DNA of 64,000 bases from the sequence record NC_054920.1; one strand, written 5' to 3'. Below the pieces are notes generated by a model. The model saw only the letters and a list, made by a program, of their open reading frames with translations. It did not search any database and was not told the origin of the DNA. Of this stretch, positions 37,707 to 52,037 are shown piece after piece (position 1 is the stretch's first letter; each line of letters opens with the position of its first letter). The position numbers and the translations under genes were made by a program. This DNA comes from Escherichia phage vB_EcoM_G9062.

Positions 37707-38115
37707 AACTCATGAATTAGTTCTCGAGAATGTCGAAGCACTTATTCCTGAAGCACAGGGTCGCTTTGACGAATTGTCTTCTGCTTTAAATAAAGACGAT
37801 ATAAATACAATTGTCGAGAATATGCTTGATGATGAAACTGATTTAGCGGTTGCATTAGCTTCTATTAATGAAAATATGCCGTTAAATGAATTTATCGTTA
37901 AACATGTTTCTGCCCGTGGTGAAATTACTCGCACTAAAGATCGCAAAACCCGCGAACGTAATGCATTTCAAACTACCGGGTTGTCTAAAGCAAAACGTAG
38001 ACAAATTGCTCGTAAAGCTACCAAAACGAAGATTGCCAATCCAGCAGGTCAATCTCGTGCTCAGCGTAAGCGTAAAAAAGCTCTTAAACGCCGTAAAGCA
38101 TTAGGATTAAGCTAA
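37690..38115 (+). CDS. 68: Prohead core protein gp68, 141 aa
   Basis: Length and order match T4. Confidence 0.8.
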
Positions 38116-38753
38116 TGAATGAACCCCAATTACTAATTGAAACTTGGGGTCAACCTGGCGAAATTATTGATGGCGTACCAATGCTTGAATCTCATGATGG
38201 AAAAGACTTAGGTTTAAAACCGGGTTTATACATCGAAGGAATATTCATGCAAGCGGAAGTCGTCAATAGAAATAAACGTCTTTATCCAAAACGTATATTA
38301 GAAAAAGCGGTAAAAGACTATATTAATGAGCAAGTTTTAACTAAACAAGCTCTCGGAGAATTAAATCATCCTCCACGCGCTAATGTTGACCCGATGCAAG
38401 CCGCTATCATTATAGAAGATATGTGGTGGAAAGGAAATGACGTATACGGACGAGCTCGTGTTATTGAAGGTGACCACGGTCCTGGAGATAAATTAGCAGC
38501 TAATATTCGTGCCGGATGGATTCCAGGAGTTTCTTCTCGTGGATTAGGTTCATTGACTGACACAAATAAAGGTTATCGTATCGTAAACGAAGGATTCAAA
38601 TTAACTGTAGGTGTTGATGCAGTATGGGGTCCAAGTGCTCCAGATGCATGGGTAACTCCTAAGGAAATTACCGAATCACAGACGGCGGAAGCCGATACAA
38701 GTGCCGATGACGCCTATATGGCTCTCGCAGAGGCCATGAAAAAAGCGTTATAA
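38115..38753 (+). CDS. 21: Prohead protease gp21, 212 aa
   Basis: Length and order match T4. Confidence 0.92.
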   Translation: MNEPQLLIETWGQPGEIIDGVPMLESHDGKDLGLKPGLYIEGIFMQAEVVNRNKRLYPKRILEKAVKDYINEQVLTKQALGELNHPPRANVDPMQAAIIIEDMWWKGNDVYGRARVIEGDHGPGDKLAANIRAGWIPGVSSRGLGSLTDTNKGYRIVNEGFKLTVGVDAVWGPSAPDAWVTPKEITESQTAEADTSADDAYMALAEAMKKAL

Positions 38754-38756
38754 ATA
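38749..38756 (+). promoter_or_regulatory. T4 late promoter TATAAATA upstream of gene 22
   Basis: Exact TATAAATA about 28 bp upstream of the ATG. Confidence 0.6.
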
Positions 38757-38783
38757 TTATTATCTAAACAACAGGACTACAAA

Positions 38784-39593
38784 ATGCTTAAAGAACAACT
38801 GATTGCCGAAGCGCAGAAAATTGATGCTTCCGTTGCTCTTGATAGTATTTTCGAATCAGTTAATATTTCTCCGGAAGCAAAAGAAACTTTCGGCACTGTA
38901 TTCGAAGCTACCGTCAAGCAGCACGCCGTTAAATTAGCTGAATCTCATATCGCTAAAATTGCTGAAAAAGCAGAAGAAGAAGTAGAAAAAAATAAAGAAG
39001 AAGCAGAAGAAAAAGCTGAGAAGAAAATCGCTGAGCAAGCTTCTAAATTCCTTGACCATCTTGCAAAAGAATGGCTCACTGAAAATAAATTAGCAGTAGA
39101 TAAAGGTATCAAAGCCGAACTGTTTGAATCCATGCTTGGTGGATTGAAAGAGCTCTTCGTTGAACACAACGTTGTTGTTCCAGAAGAATCAGTTGATGTT
39201 GTAGCTGAAATGGAAGAAGAACTGCAAGAACATAAAGAAGAATCAGCTCGTCTGTTCGAAGAACTCAATAAGCGTGACGCATATATCAATTATGTGCAGC
39301 GTGAAGTGGCATTGAGCGAAAGTACTAAAGATCTGACTGAGTCTCAAAAAGAAAAAGTCTCTGCTCTGGTCGAAGGTATGGATTATTCAGATGCATTCTC
39401 AAGTAAATTGAGTGCAATCGTAGAAATGGTGAAGAAATCTAATAAAGATGAAAGCACTATTACTGAGAGTATAAATACTCCTGATACTGAAGCAGCCGGA
39501 CTGAATTTCGTCACTGAAGCTGTAGAAGATAAATCTGCACAAGGTGCAGAAGATATTGTAAGTGTATATGCGAAAGTCGCATCTCGTTTCTAA
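38784..39593 (+). CDS. 22: Prohead core scaffold protein gp22, 269 aa
   Basis: Acidic coiled-coil; length as T4. Confidence 0.92.
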   Translation: MLKEQLIAEAQKIDASVALDSIFESVNISPEAKETFGTVFEATVKQHAVKLAESHIAKIAEKAEEEVEKNKEEAEEKAEKKIAEQASKFLDHLAKEWLTENKLAVDKGIKAELFESMLGGLKELFVEHNVVVPEESVDVVAEMEEELQEHKEESARLFEELNKRDAYINYVQREVALSESTKDLTESQKEKVSALVEGMDYSDAFSSKLSAIVEMVKKSNKDESTITESINTPDTEAAGLNFVTEAVEDKSAQGAEDIVSVYAKVASRF

Positions 39594-39611
39594 TTTTAAA
39601 GGTTAACACAA

Positions 39612-41177
39612 ATGACTATCAAAACTAAAGCTGAACTTTTGAACAAATGGAAGCCATTACTGGAAGGTGAAGGTTTACCGGAAATTGCTAATAGCAAACA
39701 AGCGATTATCGCTAAAATCTTTGAAAACCAGGAAAAAGATTTCCAGACAGCTCCGGAATATAAAGACGAAAAAATTGCTCAGGCATTCGGTTCTTTCTTA
39801 ACAGAAGCTGAAATCGGTGGTGACCACGGTTACAATGCTACCAACATCGCCGCAGGTCAGACTTCTGGCGCAGTAACTCAGATTGGCCCAGCTGTTATGG
39901 GTATGGTACGTCGTGCTATTCCTAACCTGATTGCTTTCGATATTTGTGGTGTTCAGCCAATGAACAGCCCGACTGGCCAGGTATTCGCGCTGCGCGCAGT
40001 ATATGGTAAAGATCCAATCGCTTCCGGCGCTAAAGAAGCATTCCACCCAATGTATGGTCCAGATGCAATGTTCTCTGGTCAGGGTGCTGCTAAGAAATTC
40101 GCTGCTTTGAAAGCAAGTGATACTCTTGAAGTCGGAACTATTTACACTCACTTCTTCCAGGAAACTGGTACAGTATATCTGCAAGCTACAGCAGCTAAAC
40201 AAATTGATTCAGGCGCATCTGACGCAGACAAATTAGATGCTGAAATTAAGAAACAAATGGAAGCTGGTGTACTGGTAGAAATCGCTGAAGGTATGGCTAC
40301 TTCTATCGCTGAACTTCAGGAAGGTTTCAACGGTTCTACCGATAACCCATGGAATGAAATGGGCTTCCGTATCGATAAACAAGTTATCGAAGCTAAATCT
40401 CGTCAGCTGAAAGCTGCTTACTCTATTGAATTAGCACAAGACCTTCGCGCTGTTCACGGTATGGATGCTGATGCTGAACTGTCTGGTATTCTGGCTACCG
40501 AAATTATGCTGGAAATCAACCGCGAAGTTGTTGATTGGATTAACTACTCCGCTCAGGTTGGTAAATCTGGTATGACCCTGACTCCGGGTTCTAAAGCTGG
40601 TGTATTTGACTTCCAGGACCCAATCGATATTCGTGGTGCTCGCTGGGCAGGTGAATCCTTTAAAGCTCTGTTGTTCCAGATTGACAAAGAAGCAGTTGAA
40701 ATTGCTCGTCAGACTGGTCGCGGCGAAGGTAACTTCATTATCGCTTCCCGTAACGTAGTTAACGTTCTGGCTTCAGTTGATACCGGCATTTCTTATGCTG
40801 CACAAGGTCTGGCTACTGGCTTTAACACTGATACTACCAAGTCAGTATTTGCTGGTGTTCTGGGTGGTAAATACCGTGTATATATCGACCAGTATGCTAA
40901 ACAGGATTATTTCACCGTAGGTTATAAAGGTCCGAACGAAATGGATGCTGGTATTTACTATGCTCCATATGTAGCTCTGACTCCGCTGCGTGGTTCTGAT
41001 CCGAAGAACTTCCAACCGGTAATGGGATTCAAAACTCGTTACGGTATCGGTATCAACCCATTTGCAGAATCCGCTGCTCAGGCTCCGGCTTCTCGCATCC
41101 AGAGCGGTATGCCTTCTATTCTGAATAGCCTTGGTAAAAACGCTTACTTCCGCCGTGTATATGTTAAAGGTATCTAA
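39612..41177 (+). CDS. 23: Major capsid protein gp23, 521 aa
   Basis: Length 521 aa; N-terminal propeptide region; position after gene 22. Confidence 0.97.
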   Translation: MTIKTKAELLNKWKPLLEGEGLPEIANSKQAIIAKIFENQEKDFQTAPEYKDEKIAQAFGSFLTEAEIGGDHGYNATNIAAGQTSGAVTQIGPAVMGMVRRAIPNLIAFDICGVQPMNSPTGQVFALRAVYGKDPIASGAKEAFHPMYGPDAMFSGQGAAKKFAALKASDTLEVGTIYTHFFQETGTVYLQATAAKQIDSGASDADKLDAEIKKQMEAGVLVEIAEGMATSIAELQEGFNGSTDNPWNEMGFRIDKQVIEAKSRQLKAAYSIELAQDLRAVHGMDADAELSGILATEIMLEINREVVDWINYSAQVGKSGMTLTPGSKAGVFDFQDPIDIRGARWAGESFKALLFQIDKEAVEIARQTGRGEGNFIIASRNVVNVLASVDTGISYAAQGLATGFNTDTTKSVFAGVLGGKYRVYIDQYAKQDYFTVGYKGPNEMDAGIYYAPYVALTPLRGSDPKNFQPVMGFKTRYGIGINPFAESAAQAPASRIQSGMPSILNSLGKNAYFRRVYVKGI

Positions 41178-41192
41178 TCTTTGACGATTTAA

Positions 41193-41220
41193 GGGACCTT
41201 CGGGTCCCTTTAGTTGTTTT
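41193..41220 (+). terminator. Rho-independent terminator after gene 23
   Basis: Hairpin GGGACCTTCGGGTCCC followed by a T-run. Confidence 0.7.
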
Positions 41221-41225
41221 TATGG

Positions 41226-41233
41226 TATAAATA
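41226..41233 (+). promoter_or_regulatory. T4 late promoter TATAAATA upstream of gene 24
   Basis: Exact TATAAATA about 28 bp upstream of the ATG. Confidence 0.6.
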
Positions 41234-41260
41234 AATCATATAAACTGAAAGGAAAGCGCA

Positions 41261-42544
41261 ATGGCTAAAATCAACGAACTTCTGCGCGAATCAACCACAA
41301 CGAATAGCAACTCAATCGGTCGCCCAAATCTCGTTGCTTTGACTCGCGCTACCACTAAATTAATATATTCTGACATTGTAGCAACGCAAAGAACTAATCA
41401 ACCTGTTGCTGCTTTTTATGGTATCAAATACCTTAACCCGGATAACGAATTTACATTTAAAACTGGTGCTACTTACGCCGGAGAAGCTGGATATGTAGAC
41501 CGAGAACAAATCACAGAATTAACAGAAGAGTCTAAATTAACTCTCAATAAGGGCGATTTATTCAAATATAATAATATCGTTTATAAAGTATTAGAAGATA
41601 CACCATTTGCTGATATTGAAGAAAGCGATTTAGAATTAGCTCTTCAGATTGCAATTGTTCTTTTAAAGGTTCGTCTATTTTCTGACGCAGCGTCAACAAG
41701 CAAATTTGAAAGCTCTGATAGTGAAATTGCGGATGCTAGATTCCAGATTAATAAATGGCAAACCGCAGTTAAATCTCGTAAACTTAAAACTGGTATCACA
41801 GTTGAATTAGCACAAGATTTAGAAGCAAATGGATTCGATGCTCCTAATTTCTTGGAAGATTTGCTTGCAACTGAAATGGCAGATGAAATCAATAAAGATA
41901 TTCTGCAGTCTTTGATTACAGTGTCAAAACGCTATAAAGTTACAGGAATTACTGATACTGGATTCATCGATTTGAGTTATGCATCTGCACCTGAAGCTGG
42001 TCGTTCATTATACCGAATGGTATGTGAAATGGTTTCGCATATCCAAAAAGAATCAACTTATACAGCAACGTTCTGTGTTGCTTCAGCTCGTGCTGCTGCG
42101 ATTCTTGCTGCATCAGGTTGGTTAAAACATAAACCAGAAGATGATAAATATCTTTCACAAAATGCCTATGGGTTCTTAGCTAATGGTTTACCGCTTTATT
42201 GCGATACTAACAGCCCATTAGATTATGTAATCGTTGGTGTAGTAGAAAATATCGGTGAAAAAGAAATTGTTGGATCAATTTTCTATGCTCCGTATACAGA
42301 AGGTCTTGACTTAGATGACCCTGAACATGTAGGTGCATTTAAAGTTGTAGTTGACCCAGAAAGTTTGCAGCCATCTATCGGTTTATTAGTTAGATATGCT
42401 TTATCAGCAAATCCTTACACTGTAGCAAAAGATGAAAAAGAAGCAAGAATAATTGATGGTGGAGACATGGATAAAATGGCGGGTCGTTCAGATTTGTCTG
42501 TTTTATTAGGTGTTAAGCTACCAAAAATTATCGTTGATGAATAA
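41261..42544 (+). CDS. 24: Capsid vertex protein gp24, 427 aa
   Basis: Length and order match T4. Confidence 0.95.
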   Translation: MAKINELLRESTTTNSNSIGRPNLVALTRATTKLIYSDIVATQRTNQPVAAFYGIKYLNPDNEFTFKTGATYAGEAGYVDREQITELTEESKLTLNKGDLFKYNNIVYKVLEDTPFADIEESDLELALQIAIVLLKVRLFSDAASTSKFESSDSEIADARFQINKWQTAVKSRKLKTGITVELAQDLEANGFDAPNFLEDLLATEMADEINKDILQSLITVSKRYKVTGITDTGFIDLSYASAPEAGRSLYRMVCEMVSHIQKESTYTATFCVASARAAAILAASGWLKHKPEDDKYLSQNAYGFLANGLPLYCDTNSPLDYVIVGVVENIGEKEIVGSIFYAPYTEGLDLDDPEHVGAFKVVVDPESLQPSIGLLVRYALSANPYTVAKDEKEARIIDGGDMDKMAGRSDLSVLLGVKLPKIIVDE

Positions 42545-42550
42545 AACAAA

Positions 42551-42572
42551 GGGACCTTTCGGTCCCTTTTTA
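42551..42572. terminator. Bidirectional rho-independent terminator between gene 24 (plus) and rnlB (minus)
   Basis: Hairpin GGGACCTTTCGGTCCC with a T-run on the plus strand and an A-run before it (a U-run on the minus transcript). Confidence 0.7.
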
Positions 42573-42573
42573 T

Positions 42574-43578
42574 TTAACTTACCAATTCAATCCAAGTCGG
42601 ACGAAGTACATCTTGTACCATTTTAACTAATTCCTTTTTAACCAAAGAAGGATTATCTGCTTGAGTTAGAGTAATACCTTCACGAGAAGTTTCTTCCAAA
42701 ATATCTTGAACAGTTAGTCCCATCACCTTTCCAAAATCCTTCGGACCAATTTCACCAATTTTAGAAATAACGTTATTTACTCGGTTCAGTGTAACGTAGC
42801 AAGCTAAAATTCCCACCAATTTGTTATCAGCTTCTGATAGTTCAACTTTAGCTTTAATAGGCTTATCAGACTTTTTCTTTTCACTAAATTTGGAATTCTT
42901 GCATTTGATGGCTACACGATTTCCATTATGAAGCCAAGAAGGATAACAAGGTTTCAATACATATCCTTCAGCGGTAAATACTTCGCCTTTGGCTTCAGCT
43001 TTCCAAACACATTTGTTAGCGTCAACTAATCCAGCATGGTCTACTGTAAAATTATAATCTTGGACGACAGAATCTAAATCATTTGGCAATTTAATAAGTT
43101 CTTCAAATTTACCACGACCTAAAAGTGGAGCCATTTTAAATTTAAATGTATTACAAAATGATTCCATCATATAATCATCGACATAAGTCACATCACCACT
43201 TTCTGTAGTGACAATAATGTCAAATACATAAAAATCTTTATCGCCATAATCGACATTCTTCTGAATGCCAGGTCCAGCGAATTCGCCAAAGACTTGATAA
43301 GATACAACCGCTGAGGTTTCCATAATATCTTGTACTGCTTTAATAGAATCTTCGTAATTCTTTAGAATAATTTCATACCCAAAGAAATCTTCAGCAGGAA
43401 GAATCGGTCCAGTACGTTTAGCGCAAGTTACTTTATCACGCTCAATAATCAATGAGAAATTTGTGCCGTGAATCTTTTCACGAGCTACCCACTCCCCACC
43501 AGTCAATCCCAAGCTATAAAGTTTTTCAATAAATTTAGAGTTGTAATGATTTTCAAGACTGCTATACTTTTTAAACAT
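42574..43578 (-). CDS. rnlB: RNA ligase 2, 334 aa
   Basis: Nucleotidyltransferase motif I EKIHGTN; N-terminus [25 protein letters not shown]; 334 aa as T4 Rnl2. Confidence 0.95.
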
Positions 43579-43587
43579 AATTAATCC

Positions 43588-43866
43588 TCAAAATGTAATT
43601 TCTAACCAATCACCATCACGCTGATCACTATTGACTTTAAAGCTGAATCCTTCTTTTCTCAGCCAATCACCAATTTCTTCAGTAATCAATTTATCACGAG
43701 CAATACAATAATAACTAAAATGTGTTTTACCTTGTTCAGCTGCTTTATTAGCAAGTTCCGAAAAATCTTTAATAAAACACTCTAGCTTAAACTGTTTACT
43801 TTTAAGTGCTTTTTCGCGCAATTGATTAGCAAAAGATTCATTTTCATAAAGATCATACTGTTCCAT
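43588..43866 (-). CDS. Hypothetical protein, 92 aa
   Basis: ORF in the position of the T4 24.x genes. Confidence 0.5.
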   Translation of the reverse strand: MEQYDLYENESFANQLREKALKSKQFKLECFIKDFSELANKAAEQGKTHFSYYCIARDKLITEEIGDWLRKEGFSFKVNSDQRDGDWLEITF

Positions 43867-44068
43867 TTTTCACCTTTTTATTGATATGTCTTTTTCTATA
43901 GACGACTTTTTCTCGAGTTTCAAATTTATTTTTAGCAGTCATAGCTCGAGCCCATAATACAGCCACTTCTTTTGCCTGTAAGTTTAATTCACGAGCAATT
44001 TCAATGAATGACTTTCCAGACTCATGAAGAGTAAACACCACAACCTCAGTTCTCATAATCAATCTCAT
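43853..44068 (-). CDS. Hypothetical small protein with helix-turn-helix-like segment, 71 aa
   Basis: ORF; GKSFIEIARELNLQAKEV resembles a helix-turn-helix. Confidence 0.45.
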   Translation of the reverse strand: MRLIMRTEVVVFTLHESGKSFIEIARELNLQAKEVAVLWARAMTAKNKFETREKVVYRKRHINKKVKNGTV

Positions 44069-44137
44069 GTTATCGAGTTGGTGCCATTATATACATCATT
44101 TTCTGATTGTGTTTTGTGTGCTTTCAAAATGAAGAAA

Positions 44138-44151
44138 GGGGCCGAAGCCCC
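44138..44151 (-). terminator. Terminator hairpin downstream of hoc
   Basis: GGGGCCGAAGCCCC hairpin; U-rich tract follows on the minus-strand transcript. Confidence 0.55.
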
Positions 44152-44157
44152 TTATGA

Positions 44158-45576
44158 TTATGGATAGGTATAGATGATACCAGTTTCTAAAGCAGTTTTA
44201 TGAATGATGTATCCATTACGCGATTCTTGAACATCAACTTCTGGATAGTCTTTCATCATCTTCTGAAGAGTGTAACGATGTAGGTAATATTTACTATCTG
44301 GGTCGTCAGTTTTCCAATCTTTACCTTCTTCGGTCATTTTTTGGATTTCATCCATAACCCACCAACCGCACCAGATATAAGCTGAAGTACGATGTGGAAG
44401 AGGATGAACATAAGGTAGTTCACCTTCTGGTTCTGGAGCAACTTTATCAGTTACCTGAACTTGACCTTCTGCTGTAATAGTTTTGCTATCGTAATCAGTT
44501 GCAGTAACGACAGCAGTAACTTCAATAGTTTGACTTCCAACAGATGAGGTATCGACAGTATATACGTTAGTTGACCCTTCTACAGGAGAAGAATCTTTCT
44601 TCCATGAGTAAGTAATTTGTGCTTCTTCTGGAGCACCCGTAACATTAGCCGTAAATGTAGCCGAAGCATCTTGCTGAACATTAATAGAAGGAGGAGTCAA
44701 TGTAACCTGTGGATTCATTGTCTTCTTATTAACTGTCAATGATACTTCATTAGAAGTAACTTCCTTTTCATTGTAATTTTCAGCAGTTACTTGGGCTACG
44801 CATTTAATTCTTTTTACTCCACTTGTAGTTGGAGTATAGCTAAATGTAGAGTTAGTTTCTCCACCAACTTGTGAATCATCTACATACCACTGATACGTAG
44901 CAGACGCTCCATCAGGTTGAGAAGCTAAGGCAGCAGTAAATTGAACTGGGGTTCCGATTACTCCCGCTGGAGGACTATCAGGAGTTACTGCCAAAGTAGT
45001 TGTCTGCGTCTTTTTATTAACAGTTAGTGACACTTCATTGGAAGTAACTTCCTTTGTATCATAATCTGTCGCGGTTACTTGAGCTACGCACTTAATTGTT
45101 TTAACTCCGCTTGCGTCAGGAGTGTAATTGAATGTAGTGCTAGTTGCTTCGCCCACAGGAGAACCGTCAACGTACCATTGATACGTAGCGTTTGCACCTG
45201 ATGGCTGTGAAGCTAAGGCAGCGGTAAATTCAATTGGAGTTCCAATCACTCCAGCATCAGGGCTACCAGGAGTTACTGCCAAAGTAGTTGTTTGTGTCTT
45301 ATTTTGAACTGTGATAGTTGTACTAATTTCAGCTGTTTCAGGTTCAGATTCTGCAACTTGATTGGTTGCAACTACTTTAATAGTCTTTTGACCGGCAGGT
45401 CCTTTTAGTACATAACTAAAAGTTGCTGACGTTTCTTCCTGTGGAGCGTCGTCTACAGTCCAAGCATATGTAATAGTTCCGCCTCCAGTTTCACCACTGG
45501 GTGTAGCAGTAAACTGCTTAGTTTCATCAATAACCCCTGTCGGTGTTTTAGGAGTTATATCAACTGTAAAAGTCAT
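44158..45576 (-). CDS. hoc: Highly immunogenic outer capsid protein Hoc, 472 aa, with an extra Ig-like domain
   Basis: Tandem Ig-like domains; C-terminal capsid-binding region PYVHPLPHRTSAYIWCGWWVMDEIQKM...; about 96 aa longer than the 376 aa I recall for T4 Hoc. Confidence 0.85.
   Translation of the reverse strand: MTFTVDITPKTPTGVIDETKQFTATPSGETGGGTITYAWTVDDAPQEETSATFSYVLKGPAGQKTIKVVATNQVAESEPETAEISTTITVQNKTQTTTLAVTPGSPDAGVIGTPIEFTAALASQPSGANATYQWYVDGSPVGEATSTTFNYTPDASGVKTIKCVAQVTATDYDTKEVTSNEVSLTVNKKTQTTTLAVTPDSPPAGVIGTPVQFTAALASQPDGASATYQWYVDDSQVGGETNSTFSYTPTTSGVKRIKCVAQVTAENYNEKEVTSNEVSLTVNKKTMNPQVTLTPPSINVQQDASATFTANVTGAPEEAQITYSWKKDSSPVEGSTNVYTVDTSSVGSQTIEVTAVVTATDYDSKTITAEGQVQVTDKVAPEPEGELPYVHPLPHRTSAYIWCGWWVMDEIQKMTEEGKDWKTDDPDSKYYLHRYTLQKMMKDYPEVDVQESRNGYIIHKTALETGIIYTYP
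44719..45294 (-). repeat. Tandem duplication (2 x about 288 bp, diverged) inside hoc, encoding two paralogous Ig-like domains
   Basis: Protein repeats NKKTQTTTLAVTPGSPDAGVIGTPIEFTAALASQP... and NKKTQTTTLAVTPDSPPAGVIGTPVQFTAALASQP... visible at DNA level. Confidence 0.85.
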
Positions 45577-45585
45577 AAGTTATCC

Positions 45586-46266
45586 TTATTTTAATGTTAC
45601 GAAAGAAGAGTTGCGTGTTTCACGAATTAGAACTGATCCGTCACGGTTAATGTAATAAATTAAGCTAAATAAAGTTTGGTGTGCTGACGCATGTTCAAAA
45701 CTAGTTGGGTGAGATTTCCAATCAGGAGTTTCAGCAATCCATTGATAAATCCACCAAGGAACAGTACAGAATCCTGGATTTTTTCCAATCAACTGAAGAT
45801 TCGGGCTAAAGTTTTCCGGAAGAGTAAATACAGACGGCTTTTCAGATTCAATAATCTCAGCTACAGCCTGTTCAAATTTTTCTTCAACAAATGGAGTATC
45901 TTCAATCAAAACATCGGTATTTTCAGGAATTTTATCTGTTTCTACTACTTCAATTTTAATGTCAGATTTAACCGGAGAATCAATCAAAAGTGCTGCTTCT
46001 GGATTGACTTCTTCATCGTCATATTTTAACCCCTCTGCAGCATCAGCAGCATCAATTAAGTCTTTAATAGATAACCCATCAGTCTCCGGCATAGGTTCAC
46101 TAGCGAGCTTCTGGAGAGCTTCTTCAATATCATTAACGATATTATCAAAAGATTTATTCTTTTTGACCTTTATACCAAACTGTTCAGCATATTCAGCTAA
46201 TTTAGCTTTAGCTTCTTTATTATCATCAAGAGCCTTCAGCTCTGCAATATAATCTTTATCTATCAT
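45586..46266 (-). CDS. inh: Inhibitor of prohead protease, 226 aa
   Basis: Length and position next to hoc as in T4. Confidence 0.8.
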   Translation of the reverse strand: MIDKDYIAELKALDDNKEAKAKLAEYAEQFGIKVKKNKSFDNIVNDIEEALQKLASEPMPETDGLSIKDLIDAADAAEGLKYDDEEVNPEAALLIDSPVKSDIKIEVVETDKIPENTDVLIEDTPFVEEKFEQAVAEIIESEKPSVFTLPENFSPNLQLIGKNPGFCTVPWWIYQWIAETPDWKSHPTSFEHASAHQTLFSLIYYINRDGSVLIRETRNSSFVTLK

Positions 46267-46279
46267 AATATTTCCTCAG

Positions 46280-46287
46280 TATAAATA
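46280..46287 (+). promoter_or_regulatory. TATAAATA late-type promoter element upstream of uvsW
   Basis: Exact TATAAATA about 30 bp upstream of the uvsW ATG. Confidence 0.5.
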
Positions 46288-46316
46288 TAGATATATTTAT
46301 TACATGGTATTTAGAC

Positions 46317-47828
46317 ATGACTGACATTAAAGTACATTTTTATGATTTTAGTCACGTGAGAATTGATTGCGAAGAAAGTACATTTCATGAACTCCGTGAT
46401 TTCTTTAGCTTTGAAGCTGATGGGTATCGTTTTAATCCGAAGTACAAATATGGCCACTGGGATGGACGAATTCGTCTTTTAGATTATAATCGCCTTCTTC
46501 CATTCGGTTTAGTCGGGCAAATTAAAAAGTTCTGCGATAACTTTGGCTATAAAGCCTGGATTGACCCACAGATTAACGAAAAAGAAGAATTATCAAGAAA
46601 AGATTTTGATGAATGGCTTTCTAAATTAGAAATCTATTCAGGAAATAAAAGAATTGAACCGCATTGGTATCAAAAAGATGCAGTGTTCGAAGGATTAGTT
46701 AATCGTCGTAGAATTCTTAATCTTCCAACATCCGCTGGTAAATCGTTAATTCAAGCTTTGCTTGCGCGATATTATTTGGAAAATTATGAAGGTAAAATTC
46801 TTATCATTGTTCCAACAACTGCTCTAACAACTCAGATGGCTGATGACTTCGTTGACTATCGTTTATTCAGTCATGCAATGATAAAGAAAATTGGTGGCGG
46901 AGCATCAAAAGATGATAAATATAAAAATGATGCACCAGTCGTTGTTGGTACATGGCAAACTGTAGTAAAACAACCGAAAGAATGGTTCTCACAGTTTGGA
47001 ATGATGATGAATGATGAATGCCATCTTGCTACAGGAAAAAGTATTTCATCTATCATATCAGGTTTAAATAACTGCATGTTCAAATTTGGTCTATCTGGTT
47101 CATTACGTGATGGCAAAGCCAATATCATGCAGTATGTTGGAATGTTTGGTGAAATATTTAAGCCAGTAACGACTTCTAAGTTAATGGAAGATGGACAAGT
47201 AACTGAGCTAAAAATTAATAGTATTTTTCTTCGCTATCCCGATGAGTTCACTACTAAATTAAAGGGAAAAACTTATCAAGAAGAAATAAAAATTATTACG
47301 GGGCTTAGTAAAAGAAATAAATGGATCGCTAAATTGGCTATTAAGCTTGCACAAAAAGATGAAAACGCTTTTGTCATGTTTAAACATGTATCACATGGTA
47401 AAGCTATTTTCGATTTAATTAAAAATGAATACGATAAAGTTTATTACGTATCAGGGGAAGTTGATACCGAAACCCGCAATATAATGAAAACCTTAGCTGA
47501 AAATGGTAAAGGAATAATTATAGTAGCTAGTTATGGTGTATTTTCTACTGGTATTTCAGTTAAAAATCTGCATCACGTTGTTTTAGCGCACGGTGTTAAA
47601 TCAAAAATCATTGTATTACAAACAATCGGTCGTGTATTACGTAAGCATGGTTCTAAAACAATCGCAACAGTCTGGGACCTCATAGATGACTGTGGTGTCA
47701 AGCCAAAATCTGCTAATACTAAAAAGAAATATGTTCACTTGAACTATCTTTTAAAACACGGCATTGATCGTATTCAGCGCTACGCAGATGAAAAATTTAA
47801 TTACGTAATGAAAACAGTTAATTTATAA
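46317..47828 (+). CDS. uvsW: UvsW DNA/RNA helicase (SF2), 503 aa
   Basis: Helicase motifs (Walker A-like NLPTSAGKS, DExH-like MMMNDECH); 503 aa as T4 UvsW. Confidence 0.92.
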   Translation: MTDIKVHFYDFSHVRIDCEESTFHELRDFFSFEADGYRFNPKYKYGHWDGRIRLLDYNRLLPFGLVGQIKKFCDNFGYKAWIDPQINEKEELSRKDFDEWLSKLEIYSGNKRIEPHWYQKDAVFEGLVNRRRILNLPTSAGKSLIQALLARYYLENYEGKILIIVPTTALTTQMADDFVDYRLFSHAMIKKIGGGASKDDKYKNDAPVVVGTWQTVVKQPKEWFSQFGMMMNDECHLATGKSISSIISGLNNCMFKFGLSGSLRDGKANIMQYVGMFGEIFKPVTTSKLMEDGQVTELKINSIFLRYPDEFTTKLKGKTYQEEIKIITGLSKRNKWIAKLAIKLAQKDENAFVMFKHVSHGKAIFDLIKNEYDKVYYVSGEVDTETRNIMKTLAENGKGIIIVASYGVFSTGISVKNLHHVVLAHGVKSKIIVLQTIGRVLRKHGSKTIATVWDLIDDCGVKPKSANTKKKYVHLNYLLKHGIDRIQRYADEKFNYVMKTVNL

Positions 47829-47841
47829 GGGCTTCGGCCCT

Positions 47842-48084
47842 TTGGAGAAAAAGATGTTACTAGAATTTAAACAATTTCTTTATGAAGCTTCTATTGATGA
47901 ATTTATGGGTAAAATTGCCTCTTGTCAAACATTAGAAGGTTTAGAAGAACTTGAAGCTTATTATAAGAAAAGAGTTAAAGAAACTGAATTAAAAGATACT
48001 GATGACATCTCAGTCAGAGATGCTTTGGCAGGAAAAAGAGCTGAATTAGAAGATTCAGACGATGAAGTAGAAGAAAGCTTTTAA
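47842..48084 (+). CDS. uvsW.1: UvsW.1-like small protein, 80 aa
   Basis: Small ORF directly after uvsW, separated from it by a hairpin GGGCTTCGGCCC. Confidence 0.7.
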   Translation: MEKKMLLEFKQFLYEASIDEFMGKIASCQTLEGLEELEAYYKKRVKETELKDTDDISVRDALAGKRAELEDSDDEVEESF

Positions 48085-48139
48085 ATTAAAAAAGGCCCAA
48101 CCAAAAAGGAAGGGCCAAAACTATAGACTAAAGGTCACA

Positions 48140-48307
48140 CTATAGCAAAAGTTGCGTTTCATTTAATTGTTCTTCCGAACTTTCTGAAACTGGTAGTTCT
48201 TTAATGTAATTATAGCAAGGCCCAGGATGTACAGGACCTTTGTCTGTTTCAACAACCAATGCAGAATCGATTGGAGTTTTACAGACAACACAAATCTTAT
48301 CTGACAT
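48140..48307 (-). CDS. Small CxxC zinc-ribbon-like protein, 55 aa (below the 60-aa cutoff of the ORF track)
   Basis: Manual translation from ATG (complement of 48305-48307): MSDKICVVCKTPIDSALVVETDKGPVHPGPCYNYIKELPVSESSEEQLNETQLLL; fills the gap downstream of uvsY. Confidence 0.45.
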   Translation of the reverse strand: MSDKICVVCKTPIDSALVVETDKGPVHPGPCYNYIKELPVSESSEEQLNETQLLL

Positions 48308-48335
48308 GATTGTCTCCTCTGAATTATATATCTAT

Positions 48336-48560
48336 TTATACAACTCTCATATGCATATCAATGCCCATATCTTTAGAATAAAAATATTCATCAAGATATC
48401 CGGCAAATTTTCCTTTAATATAAAGAACATCTTCACCGCACGGGTGGTCGGCCAGGATACGAATATCCTGACGCTTAAGATTATGCTTTTTCATTAAGAA
48501 TTGAATTTCCGTTTCAAATTCTTCTTCATAATTAAAAGCATCATCAATGTTATATCTCAT
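48336..48560 (-). CDS. Hypothetical protein downstream of uvsY, 74 aa
   Basis: ORF; ATGA-type overlap with the uvsY stop at 48560. Confidence 0.6.
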   Translation of the reverse strand: MRYNIDDAFNYEEEFETEIQFLMKKHNLKRQDIRILADHPCGEDVLYIKGKFAGYLDEYFYSKDMGIDMHMRVV

Positions 48561-48973
48561 TATTTTCCAGCCTCAAATGCTCGCATGTCTTGAATATGCT
48601 TAATAGCAAATCCACGTGATTTAATAGCATCAAGAGCTCCGCTACAGAAATCTAATAAAATCCCCCAATACTGTAACGAGGTATCAACCTTTAAAACATC
48701 CTTATCAGCTGATAGAACTGTCTTCATTTCTGATTTCTCGTAACGATCCATACTAAATTCATCACCATCTCCTCGTCCCGAGTAGTAGTCTAATTTAGCT
48801 TTAAGAGCAACTTTTTTCTGTGCTTCAATTCTAAGCATTTCCTTTTTAATACTTGAATGCTTATTAAGCCATTTACTATATAACATCACATTATTAGCTG
48901 CTTCATACTGTAATTTAGTCGAATCTATAAACACATCTTTCTTCAATTCTTCTTGAAGATCTTCTAATCTCAT
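48560..48973 (-). CDS. uvsY: Recombination mediator protein UvsY, 137 aa
   Basis: MRLEDLQEELKKDVFIDSTKLQYEAANNVMLYSKWL...; 137 aa as T4 UvsY. Confidence 0.95.
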   Translation of the reverse strand: MRLEDLQEELKKDVFIDSTKLQYEAANNVMLYSKWLNKHSSIKKEMLRIEAQKKVALKAKLDYYSGRGDGDEFSMDRYEKSEMKTVLSADKDVLKVDTSLQYWGILLDFCSGALDAIKSRGFAIKHIQDMRAFEAGK

Positions 48974-49013
48974 ATTGTTCTCTATTCAATTGTTATTGGA
49001 TGGACTTAGATTC

Positions 49014-49039
49014 ATTATACCACGTTTATACGTGAAGCA
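49014..49039 (-). promoter_or_regulatory. Middle-mode promoter for uvsY (MotA box plus -10)
   Basis: On the minus strand: ATGCTTCA (MotA-box-like TGCTTCA), 13-nt spacer, TATAAT; uvsY has a classic MotA-dependent promoter in T4. Confidence 0.55.
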
Positions 49040-49438
49040 TTATACTCTATTACTGGAAGCCAGTTGTAGTTTTATCTGCTCAATATCATCAGGGTTATCG
49101 ATGACTGAAAAGCGTATTTCTACTATCAAAGTATAATCATCATAAACCGGTATTACATTAACTGCTAATTTATCAATACGTGGCTCATAGTTTCTTACTG
49201 CGCTTTCGATATTGCGCTCAACTGTGTCAGCAGTAAGAGGAGTCATATTTTCAAAAAGCTGGTCTGATAAATCACATCCAAATTCAGGGTCAAACGGTCT
49301 TGAACCTTTTCTTGTTGTAATAATTCCTAAAAGACTGTTTTTAATTGACCTTAATCCAAGCGATCTGGAAACATCTTTGTTCCAATCCATTTTCATTTCT
49401 GGGTCAATGTCAGAATAAAGCTTATTAATATTTGCCAT
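49040..49438 (-). CDS. 25: Baseplate wedge protein gp25, 132 aa
   Basis: Length and order match T4. Confidence 0.9.
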   Translation of the reverse strand: MANINKLYSDIDPEMKMDWNKDVSRSLGLRSIKNSLLGIITTRKGSRPFDPEFGCDLSDQLFENMTPLTADTVERNIESAVRNYEPRIDKLAVNVIPVYDDYTLIVEIRFSVIDNPDDIEQIKLQLASSNRV

Positions 49439-50064
49439 TATAGTAACTCAAAGAACTCTTTGAGGCCTCTTATTACATGAGCATGGGTTTTTCCACACTC
49501 TGGACACTTAATTGGAACAGCCAAATAAACGGTAGGTTTTAAAAGCATATCTTTTATAGCTACAATATCTGACTCTGTGATGATAGAATATAAATCTTCT
49601 AGTTCCTTTTCATTTAAGTCTTCAACTGGAATGCTTTCCCCGTTAGCATGAATCGTTTCTATGCATGATACTATCATGTGGGCTATATTTTTATCATCAA
49701 AAATTTTAGGGTATCGGAATTTAATTTTAATGTCACCCAGTGTATACCAGAGGTCTTCTGGTGCATCTATTTGTGTATGTAATAGATTTATATGGGTTGG
49801 TATTTCAGTTCCACAGGTGCACTTCCAAGAGTTTTCGTGATTAACTTCACCAAGAGAATGCGCCCATAAATGAATCAGTAATAGTTCTGATTCTTGGCGG
49901 TTTAAATCTTTTGCATTTGTACAGTCTTTGATTAGCTTTTTAACAATCTCTTCTACTGAACCATTCTTTTTAGCAGTAATAAGTTCTAGATATTCTTTAA
50001 GCGTGAATGCGCGACAATTGATTATTTTAGAACCAACTCTCACATCAAATTTGTATTCATACAT
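49438..50064 (-). CDS. 26: Baseplate hub protein gp26, 208 aa
   Basis: Length and order match T4. Confidence 0.85.
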
Positions 50065-50090
50065 ATTTTAGCTCCTTTATTTATCATATT

Positions 50091-50098
50091 TATAAATA
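50091..50098 (+). promoter_or_regulatory. T4 late promoter TATAAATA upstream of gene 51 (divergent region with gene 26)
   Basis: Exact TATAAATA 18 bp upstream of the gene 51 ATG. Confidence 0.6.
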
Positions 50099-50115
50099 GA
50101 ATAAAAGGAGCATCT

Positions 50116-50868
50116 ATGGCAAACATTATTCGTTGTAAATTACCAGATGGTGTTCATCGTTTTAAACCATTTACGGTAGAAGATTATCGAGATTTTTTGT
50201 TAGTTCGAAACGATATAGAGCATCGGTCACCACAAGAACAAAAAGAAATAATTACTGATTTAATTGATGATTATTTTGGAGACTATCCGAAGACTTGGCA
50301 ACCATTTATATTTTTGCAGGTATTTGTAGGGTCAATAGGTAAAACTAAAGTACCAGTCACATTTGTATGTCCAAAATGTAAAAAAGAAAAGACAGTTCCA
50401 TTTGAAATATATCAAAAAGAATTAAAGGAACCTATTTTTGATGTAGCTAATGTTAAAATTAAATTAAATTTTCCTTCTGAGTTTTATGAAAATAAAGCAA
50501 AGATGATTACTGAAAATATTCATTCTGTTCAAGTAGATGAAATGTGGTATGATTGGAAGGAAATTAGTGAATCGAGTCAAATAGAACTTGTTGACGCCAT
50601 CGAGATAGAAACATTAGAAAAAATTCTCGATGCAATGAATCCTATTAATTTAACATTGCACATGTCGTGTTGTGATAAGTACATTAAAAAATACACTGAT
50701 ATAGTAGATGTGTTTAAGCTATTAGTTAATCCAGATGAGATATTTACTTTTTATCAAATTAATCACACGCTTGTAAAAAGTAATTATAGCTTAAATTCAA
50801 TAATGAAAATGATTCCTGCCGAGCGCGGATTCGTATTAAAACTGATTGAGAAGGATAAACATCAATGA
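50116..50868 (+). CDS. 51: Baseplate hub assembly catalyst gp51, 250 aa
   Basis: Length and order match T4. Confidence 0.85.
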
Positions 50869-52037
50869 GTATGTTACAACGTCCTGGATATCCAAATCTC
50901 AGCGTTAAATTATTTGAGAGTTATGACGCTTGGAGTAATAATAGATTTGTTGAATTAGCTGCTACTATTACCACATTAACTATGCGTGACTCTCTTTATG
51001 GTCGAAATGAAGGAATGCTGCAGTTTTATGATTCTAAAAATATCCACACAAAAATGGATGGAAATGAAATAATTCAAATTTCTGTAGCTAATGCAAACGA
51101 TATTAATAATGTTAAAACACGAATTTATGGATGCAAGCATTTTTCCGTGTCAGTAGATTCAAAAGGCGATAACATCATTGCTATTGAATTGGGAACTATT
51201 CATTCTATAGAAAATCTTAAATTTGGTAGACCATTTTTCCCTGATGCAGGTGAATCTATAAAAGAAATGCTTGGTGTCATTTATCAAGACCGCACATTAT
51301 TAACTCCAGCAATAAATGCTATAAATGCTTATGTTCCTGATATTCCATGGACTAGCACATTTGAAAACTATTTGTCATATGTAAGAGAAGTTGCTCTAGC
51401 GGTAGGAAGCGATAAGTTCGTATTTGTATGGCAAGACATCATGGGAGTTAACATGATGGACTATGATATGATGATAAATCAAGAACCATATCCAATGATT
51501 GTAGGTGAGCCAACTTTAATAGGTCAATTCGTCCAAGAATTGAAATATCCATTAGCATATGATTTTGTTTGGTTGACTAAATCAAACCCGCATAAACGTG
51601 ATCCAATGAAAAATGCTACTATCTATGCTCATTCATTTTTAGATTCTTCATTACCAATGATTACTACAGGAAAGGGTGAAAACTCTATTGTAGTGTCAAG
51701 GTCAGGTGCTTATTCTGAAATGACTTATAGAAATGGATATGAAGAAGCTATTCGTCTTCAGACTATGGCGCAATATGACGGCTATGCTAAATGTTCTACT
51801 GTCGGTAATTTTAACTTGACTCCTGGCGTTAAAATTATTTTTAATGATAGTAAAAACCAATTTAAAACAGAATTTTACGTTGATGAAGTTATTCACGAAT
51901 TATCAAATAATAATTCCGTAACTCATCTATATATGTTCACTAATGCAACGAAACTGGAAACAATCGACCCAGTTAAGGTTAAAAATGAATTTAAAACTGA
52001 TACTACCACTGAAGAAAGTAGTTCTTCCGATAAGTAA
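50865..52037 (+). CDS. 27: Baseplate hub protein gp27, 390 aa
   Basis: Length and order match T4. Confidence 0.9.

Follow-up and report, generated by a model that had tools for sequence, protein, structure and literature searches.

The hoc gene of Escherichia phage vB_EcoM_G9062 (NC_054920.1) is an old, common, and catalogued allele and represents an ordinary, known kind of variation. In the 64,000-nt stretch of DNA that was analyzed as a whole (hereafter the window), it very probably constitutes the two-unit (A–B) allele of an immunoglobulin (Ig)-like array, which is built from domain-2-type units and is polymorphic in copy number among Tequatrovirus hoc genes. As parts of the same explanation, and with the same high confidence, the two units are old paralogs under purifying selection and no fresh duplicate, and the protein is a capsid fiber of five domains, i.e., D1, D2-A, D2-B, D3, and a conserved capsid-binding domain. 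A sequence-only reading of the window had described a Hoc protein enlarged by a recent tandem duplication of an Ig-like domain. This interpretation is partly supported, being right in part on the architecture and wrong on the age and the direction of the change.

The hoc locus and the domains of its product

[quoted passage not shown] The gene order rnlB-24.2-24.3-hoc-inh-uvsW in the window is that of the T4 annotation, and a comparison of the window ORFs to the annotated T4 region placed hoc between inh and 24.3 in both. The best PHROG match of the 472-aa protein was phrog_1149 ("Hoc-like head decoration"; E = 1.6e-143), and its best sequence match in the PDB was T4 Hoc (5vf3/8t1x; phmmer, E = 1.7e-222), which is the sole close solved relative. 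Together with the near-identical C-terminal domain, these matches agree with the initial assignment, and by sequence and position the ORF is hoc (Table 1). The opposite strand holds no ORF of at least 60 aa within 44158–45576, and on the strand of hoc, no exact copy of the late-promoter motif TATAAATA was found directly upstream of the gene. T4 hoc (NC_000866, 110187–111317) encodes 376 aa (NP_049793), so the length difference stated in the sequence-only reading was correct. A global alignment of the 472-aa Hoc and T4 Hoc contained a single clean gap of 96 aa and no other.

Table 1. Position of hoc, its domains, and the longest identical run of its repeat units in the window.
Feature	Position	Strand	Description and basis
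hoc CDS	44158–45576	(−)	472 aa plus stop codon at 44158–44160; intact ORF (ORF list)
Ig-like domain 1 (D1), aa 1–92	45301–45576	(−)	Aligns with T4 Hoc aa 1–92; AlphaFold2 beta-sandwich, pLDDT ~87–94
Domain-2-type unit u1, aa 93–188, lineage A; absent from T4	45013–45300	(−)	Tandem Repeats Finder and register check
Domain-2-type unit u2, aa 189–284, lineage B; ortholog of T4 domain 2 (single copy)	44725–45012	(−)	
Ig-like domain 3 (D3), aa 285–376	44449–44724	(−)	Aligns with T4 Hoc aa 189–280; AlphaFold2 beta-sandwich
C-terminal capsid-binding domain (D4), aa 377–472	44161–44448	(−)	One residue differs from T4 Hoc 281–376
25-nt run ACAACTACTTTGGCAGTAACTCCTG in u1	45267–45291	(−)	Longest in-register exact match between u1 and u2
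25-nt run ACAACTACTTTGGCAGTAACTCCTG, copy in u2	44979–45003	(−)	Exact match to the run in u1

The repeat itself is real. Comparison of the protein to itself revealed a sharp peak at an offset of 96 aa (108 identities, with ~25–50 at other offsets), and Tandem Repeats Finder reported 2.0 copies with a period of 288 at 44720–45300 (78% matches, score 701). The two consecutive blocks of about 96 aa that had been singled out from the letters (45007–45294 and 44719–45006) are the same repeat as u1 and u2, shifted by 6 nt from the domain register; 76 of their 96 residues are identical (79%, about 80% having been estimated), at a DNA identity of 76.4%. Short similarities are shared by the domain boundaries, namely GTTCAAAATAAGAC at D1/u1, GTTAATAAAAAGAC at u1/u2, and GTTAATAAGAAGAC at u2/D3. 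The idea that the repeat could be an assembly or reading artefact is negligible in probability: the ORF is intact, units with a divergence of 24% cannot result from the collapse or doubling of a read, and many genomes that were sequenced independently contain a gene of this length.

As the single domain 2 of T4 pairs with u2 (DNA identity of 90.3%, dS of 0.27), the unit absent from T4 is u1. The two loci are the same, and collinearity extends to D1, D3, and the capsid-binding domain; unlike T4 Hoc, the window protein has an extra A-lineage unit (aa 93–188) between D1 and the T4-type domain 2. The claim of one additional Ig-like domain thus held, the extra length being exactly one domain-2-type copy in tandem.

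Domain predictions, which the sequence-only reading had proposed as a check, returned PKD- and Ig-type domains. In Pfam, PKD scored best at aa 195–267 (44.8 bits for the whole protein at a cut-off of 23.5) and Ig_2 reached 30.3 bits at a cut-off of 27; BiPBP_C and PKD_3 were also above their cut-offs. Ig_3 and I-set matched aa 289–373 with scores below the curated cut-offs (29.1 vs. 30 and 21.7 vs. 23.7 bits, respectively). An AlphaFold2 model, derived from 46 sequences, contained four confident beta-sandwich domains over aa 1–376 (pLDDT ~90), compared to three in T4. Foldseek matched four-Ig proteins, the Hoc protein of RB49 (3shs), and, with 99% identity, 8t1x_X, the C-terminal domain of T4 Hoc on the gp23* capsomer. 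All three methods therefore recovered the N-terminal string of Ig-like domains that characterizes Hoc. Model confidence was low in the C-terminal domain (pLDDT 33–56), so its assignment rests on sequence; alignment, phmmer, Foldseek, and phrog_1149 all relate it to residues 281–376 of T4 Hoc.

Age, lineages, and order of the units

Synonymous and nonsynonymous divergence was calculated according to Nei–Gojobori. Between u1 and u2, dS was 1.09, which is near saturation, and dN/dS was 0.13. The corresponding dS values for the window versus T4 were 0.21 (D1), 0.27 (u2), 0.22 (D3), and 0.14 (D4), with a dN of 0.005 for the C-terminal domain. Divergence between the units is thus 4–8 times that between the window and T4 hoc genes, from which it follows that the units are several times older than the split of the two alleles.

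Units were extracted from 122 proteins and, at the DNA level, from 26 hoc genes. All 26 genes examined were intact and contained one, two, three, or four units, in every case starting at the same residue. The 36 within-gene unit pairs from the 16 multi-unit genes were without exception 74–84% identical in DNA, and the units of all 39 multi-unit protein cluster representatives were 56–85% identical. Young unit copies were found in none of the hoc genes examined (26 as DNA, 122 proteins), and no units within multi-unit genes exceeded a DNA identity of 84%. In a neighbor-joining tree of 51 units from the 26 genes, units fell into four lineages (A, B, b, and C) and did not group by genome. The window u1 fell into one cluster with the unit that comes first in each of the multi-unit genes, its DNA identity being 90% to u1 of slur03 and 91% to u1 of EC101, compared to 76% to its own neighbor u2. 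For u2, 99.3% identity was found both to the unit of ESCO58 and to u2 of CHD2BS1.

These data bear on the view that domain 2 was recently duplicated in tandem in the phage's own lineage, enlarging an ancestral, T4-like Hoc of 376 aa. The reference phage T4 does have one unit, and the window units are perfectly tandem and in frame. However, near-identical copies are lacking (dS 1.09, DNA identity only 76%), the closest relatives of each unit lie in other phages (identities of 90–99%) and not in the adjacent unit, and the architecture is not confined to a narrow lineage: it is shared by ~40% of the sampled Tequatrovirus genomes, in hoc genes with down to ~90% DNA identity to that of the window. 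We therefore regard a recent duplication as highly improbable, and the word "recent" in the sequence-only reading does not hold for units that group by type across phages.

The lineages follow a constant order. Four units (A–B–b–C) are present in slur03 and FJ1; three units in UGKSEcP1, EC101, and YUEEL01 (A–b–C), T4_ev151 (A–B–C), and A6-6 (A–B–b); and two units in the window gene, CHD2BS1, Kelasse, moskry, and sb2 (A–B), phiD1 (A–b), and HP3 and ime09 (A–C). The order was collinear with A–B–b–C in 16/16 DNA-classified genes and in 39/39 protein cluster representatives, and reversed in none, a result that depends in part on lineage types defined from the same data. Painting against the four slur03 units revealed the same lineage pattern with local mosaicism: the window u2 contains a b-like internal patch, and the T4 unit has an A-like 3' end. 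Eight genes appeared to be "b–B" when proteins were typed against the slur03 units, a procedure with small margins (≤2 in 45 of 169 units); all eight were A–B once typed by DNA-tree profiles.

The array could also be younger than the divergence of its units. Deep one-unit A and B alleles would then have been joined in one misaligned recombination of co-infecting phages, at the short similarities of the D1/D2 and D2/D3 boundaries, after which A–B would have spread by recombination. In line with this, one-unit genes with A-like, B-like, b-like, or C-like units exist, the boundary similarities listed above are present, and hoc alleles clearly move between lineages, as phages labeled Mosigvirus carry Tequatrovirus-type hoc. 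The constant unit order speaks against repeated allele joining and for few founding events, and we consider this scenario doubtful. Even under it, the joining of A and B would be old, since two-unit alleles diverge among themselves to ~90% DNA identity.

Allele frequencies and changes in copy number

A Hoc protein identical over all 472 aa is publicly available for the phages vB_EcoM_G4498 and G9062 (QBO64222.1 and QBQ77962.1). The hoc gene is 99.9% identical in DNA in G4498, PYps5T, UAB_60, and Ptacy1496, and the 14-kb neighborhood is 99.0–99.6% identical in the same four phages; the window allele is this known allele, from which it differs in nothing notable. To estimate its frequency, 60 evenly spaced records were drawn from 677 matching phage records, which gave 52 Tequatrovirus-type hoc genes. 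The hoc span was ~1131 bp in 30 of these and ~1419 bp in 20, i.e., ~40% were two-unit genes, and two genes had three units. Hoc proteins that match in length and number of repeats, named at the outset as evidence that would refute an expansion in favor of an ancestral state, are thus common among reference phages.

Comparison of Hoc lengths, another check proposed at the outset, revealed forms of 376, 472, 568, and 664 aa in Tequatrovirus. Protein searches returned length classes of 376, 472, and 568/570 aa, and tblastn with the 568-aa form returned ~16 records with matches of 1704–1710 bp. Intact ORFs of 1995 bp, encoding 664 aa with four units, were found in slur03 and FJ1; the annotated CDS of Sfk20 has the same length, and the matches in slur08 and slur14 resemble that of slur03. 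Four-unit genes are rare (seven records, including GenBank/RefSeq duplicates). The longer forms, i.e., UGKSEcP1, EC101, and YUEEL01 (568 aa) and slur03, FJ1, and Sfk20 (664 aa), share the A-first array and a u1 that is 90–91% identical in DNA to that of the window, and differ by extra b and/or C units that are absent from the window.

Whole-unit differences also separate close relatives. Within the species Tequatrovirus ecombl75, UTI-E4 has one unit, CHD2BS1 two, and EC101 three, and APTC-EC-2A has one unit fewer than the window despite a 14-kb neighborhood that is 99.2% identical to window positions 38000–52000. The hoc gene of ESCO58 (1131 nt) is what remains of the window gene when one 288-nt unit is taken out in register (0/1131 mismatches), with a best breakpoint range at unit nt 9–34, and that of APTC-EC-2A differs by two mismatches from a simulated one-unit deletion of the window gene. 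In both phages, the crossover would have occurred within the 25-nt run ACAACTACTTTGGCAGTAACTCCTG common to u1 and u2. Both are deposited assemblies, as is UTI-E4, and a short-read mis-assembly across this run is conceivable with very short k-mers; it is unlikely given two independent records and a unit divergence of 24%. The same divergence sets the direction: with a difference of 24% between u1 and u2, the window gene cannot arise through duplication of the ESCO58 unit, and the step led from two units to one. Among the closest relatives, the change is thus read as having run from 472 aa to 376 aa. This again opposes a recent duplication, since the nearest one-unit genes are deletion products whose unit, if duplicated, cannot yield the diverged u1. 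The description of Hoc as "enlarged" is accordingly reversed for these relatives, the nearest 376-aa genes being recent, exact or near-exact one-unit deletion derivatives of the window allele.

A second exact product was found in UTI-E4. Its single unit equals EC101 u1 (nt 1–89) followed by EC101 u3 (nt 90–288) with 0/288 mismatches, while the unmixed parent units differ from it at 45 and 15 positions, and the downstream 567 nt contain two differences to EC101. Chimeric units with in-register junctions in common sequence are thus represented by both ESCO58 and UTI-E4. Copy number is very probably altered by unequal, in-register homologous recombination between units via short identity runs; such recombination removes, and presumably also adds, exact 288-bp units while the reading frame is kept. 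No exact expansion product was identified among the sampled arrays.

The window gene could itself have arisen by contraction of an ancestral three- or four-unit A–B–b–C array. This would concern its history only and is compatible with the explanation that we prefer. In its favor, slur03 and FJ1 contain the four lineages in sequence and each of the shorter genes has a subset of them in the same order, exact contractions are known (ESCO58 and UTI-E4), and u2 has its b-like internal patch. On the other hand, none of the sampled arrays yields the window u2 as a clean B/b or B/C chimera, an exact parent was not found among these arrays, and four-unit genes are rare. We regard such a contraction as a tentative possibility. 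The preferred explanation, a two-unit allele of an old, copy-number-polymorphic array, holds for either history.

Simple deletion from A-first arrays, which predicts mostly A-to-X chimeras, may not account for all one-unit genes. The T4 unit is not an exact chimera of the sampled arrays (best fit, 23 mismatches), and among 83 one-unit proteins, 23 were collinear and 18 reversed in chimera direction, as counted with an arbitrary threshold. Across the 51 units, the 5' block containing the 25-nt run showed no extra synonymous conservation: mean third-position diversity was much the same there (0.30 vs. 0.31, p = 0.45), which provides no evidence of a selected recombination signal. The 3' block exhibited a weak trend toward synonymous conservation (p = 0.10, 51 units). 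A more far-reaching view, which we consider rather improbable, is that the domain-2 array is a contingency-type locus with four old Ig "cassettes", whose order would be fixed by selection and whose length and content would be switched frequently via short identical runs. If true, the locus would tune how the capsid adheres to mucus or to the surface of cells, or how it evades anti-Hoc antibodies, with the capsid-binding domain untouched.

Relation to other Hoc proteins and significance

Variation in the number of Hoc domains has been described before. Hoc homologs were characterized as having strings of variable Ig-like domains, as many as 10 domains being reached, attached to a C-terminal domain that is conserved (Fokine et al. 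2023, PMC10385173), and a 2026 paper described an additional Ig-like domain in a Hoc-like protein of a Klebsiella phage and a widely varying domain number of Hoc (PMC13435897). As far as the accessible text of these sources goes, the Hoc proteins with more Ig-like domains than T4 belong to other genera, their extra domains are not established as D2-type, and neither a copy-number series nor a mechanism is described. For the D2 copy-number series of Tequatrovirus, we found no literature beyond general statements on Hoc domain-number variation.

A related case is PhiPNJ-9, whose hoc has only ~65% DNA identity to T4 hoc and whose Hoc is without domain 3; its binding to MUC2 was assigned to S183-L184-T185, where domain 2 ends (PMC11853027). 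As in the window, a domain has been gained or lost in a T4-like Hoc, but a different domain is affected. Both window units end with the same SLT triplet (aa 183–185 and aa 279–281). A scan of IMG/VR returned 21 loci, mostly from more distant genera, which were treated as out-groups and left out of the census. In a sister lineage among them, the duplicated domain is instead D3-type (56/95 and 75/94 identities), and one gene is without domain 2. Ig domains have therefore been gained and lost repeatedly in hoc.

With regard to function, the structure of T4 Hoc implies that the protein would be anchored on gp23 hexamers through its conserved C-terminal domain, as it is in T4. Four Ig domains, and not three, should then project from the capsid, which would lengthen the ~180-Å fiber by about one domain and present the domain-2 surface twice. 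Positions that vary between units were only modestly enriched in predicted loops (odds ratio of 3.4, p = 0.016). It is plausible that adhesion is tuned by the length of the fiber or by the units it contains. In T4-like phages, Hoc has been proposed as the mucus-adhesion fiber, and it serves as a display scaffold for T4 nanoparticle vaccines.

The window allele is already known and common, with nothing unusual about it; the ordered A–B–b–C series, together with the exact products of contraction, adds to what has been described in a tidy but unsurprising way. Natural Tequatroviruses carry one to four copies of domain 2, a number that recombination appears to alter cleanly. Domain 2 copy number thus matters when therapeutic phages are compared, when adhesion results obtained with T4 are extended to field isolates, and when Hoc fusions are designed.

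Three- and four-unit hoc alleles in relatives

The longest Tequatrovirus-type hoc alleles seen in this analysis, at 664 aa, were found in slur03, FJ1, and Sfk20 (see the table; L numbers denote the hoc loci of relatives and H numbers hoc search matches). All four lineages of the domain-2-type unit are present in these alleles, arranged A-B-b-C. Phage T4_ev151 (L026, LR597660.1) carries a three-unit hoc of the arrangement A-B-C, unlike T4 itself, and is therefore, despite its name, not a simple T4 derivative at the hoc locus.

Coordinates of four-unit hoc alleles and of features flanking hoc in the window
Feature	Sequence	Position	Strand	Size or remark
Four-unit hoc	slur03 (L030)	167-2161 (within locus)		1995 bp / 664 aa
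Four-unit hoc	FJ1 (L031)	210-2204 (within locus)		1995 bp / 664 aa
Four-unit hoc	Sfk20 (L029)			1995 bp / 664 aa
24.3 homologue	window (ORF list)	43853-44068	-	71 aa
T4 late-promoter core TATAAATA	window	46280-46287	+	just upstream of uvsW start

Genes and promoter motifs flanking hoc in the window

Comparison of the window ORFs with the annotated T4 region revealed differences near hoc. In T4, the homing endonuclease gene segE is located between inh and uvsW, whereas the window lacks segE, as only about 50 bp (46267-46316) separate the two genes. Furthermore, the 24.3 homologue of the window is longer than the version annotated in T4 (56 aa, 171 bp), and RB32, like several other phages, has a 216-bp version as well. 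Across the whole window, 25 copies of the T4 late-promoter core TATAAATA are present, compared to 9.6 expected; none of these is located directly upstream of hoc on the hoc strand.

Irregular hoc records in databases

The hoc gene is annotated in two or three fragments in T2 (L043, PV648363), FriedrichMiescher (H35/H64), UPWr_E2 (H22), and PM105 (H49), a pattern suggestive of frameshift or nonsense mutations, or else of sequencing errors, in this non-essential gene. In KNP5 (L032, NC_055713.1; a 193.6-kb record), the hoc region spans 2072 bp and the annotated CDS only 588 bp, which may reflect an assembly gap or an insertion. The 32-kb record MG010123.1, "Staphylococcus phage SAJK-IND" (H54), contains the E. 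coli T4-type two-unit hoc seen in the window, at 93% identity; it is flagged UNVERIFIED_ORG in the protein database and is probably mislabelled or contaminated.

Ig-domain gain, loss, and apparent exchange beyond Tequatrovirus

In T4-like IMG/VR contigs of a more distant lineage (L006, L007, and L012), the tandem-duplicated domain is of the D3 type. The genes with this duplication encode 472 and 471 aa, with copies identical at 56/95 and 75/94 residues, and one 282-aa hoc among these contigs lacks domain 2 entirely. These gains and losses of Ig domains are independent events. Tequatrovirus-type hoc was also identified, with 86-90% DNA identity, in the Mosigvirus-labelled phages moskry (L038), HX01 (L044), and PhAPEC2 (L045), and in RB69 (H117) similarity is limited to the last 273 nt of hoc (96% identity). 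The capsid-binding module of hoc is common to different genera, whereas the Ig part appears to have been exchanged.
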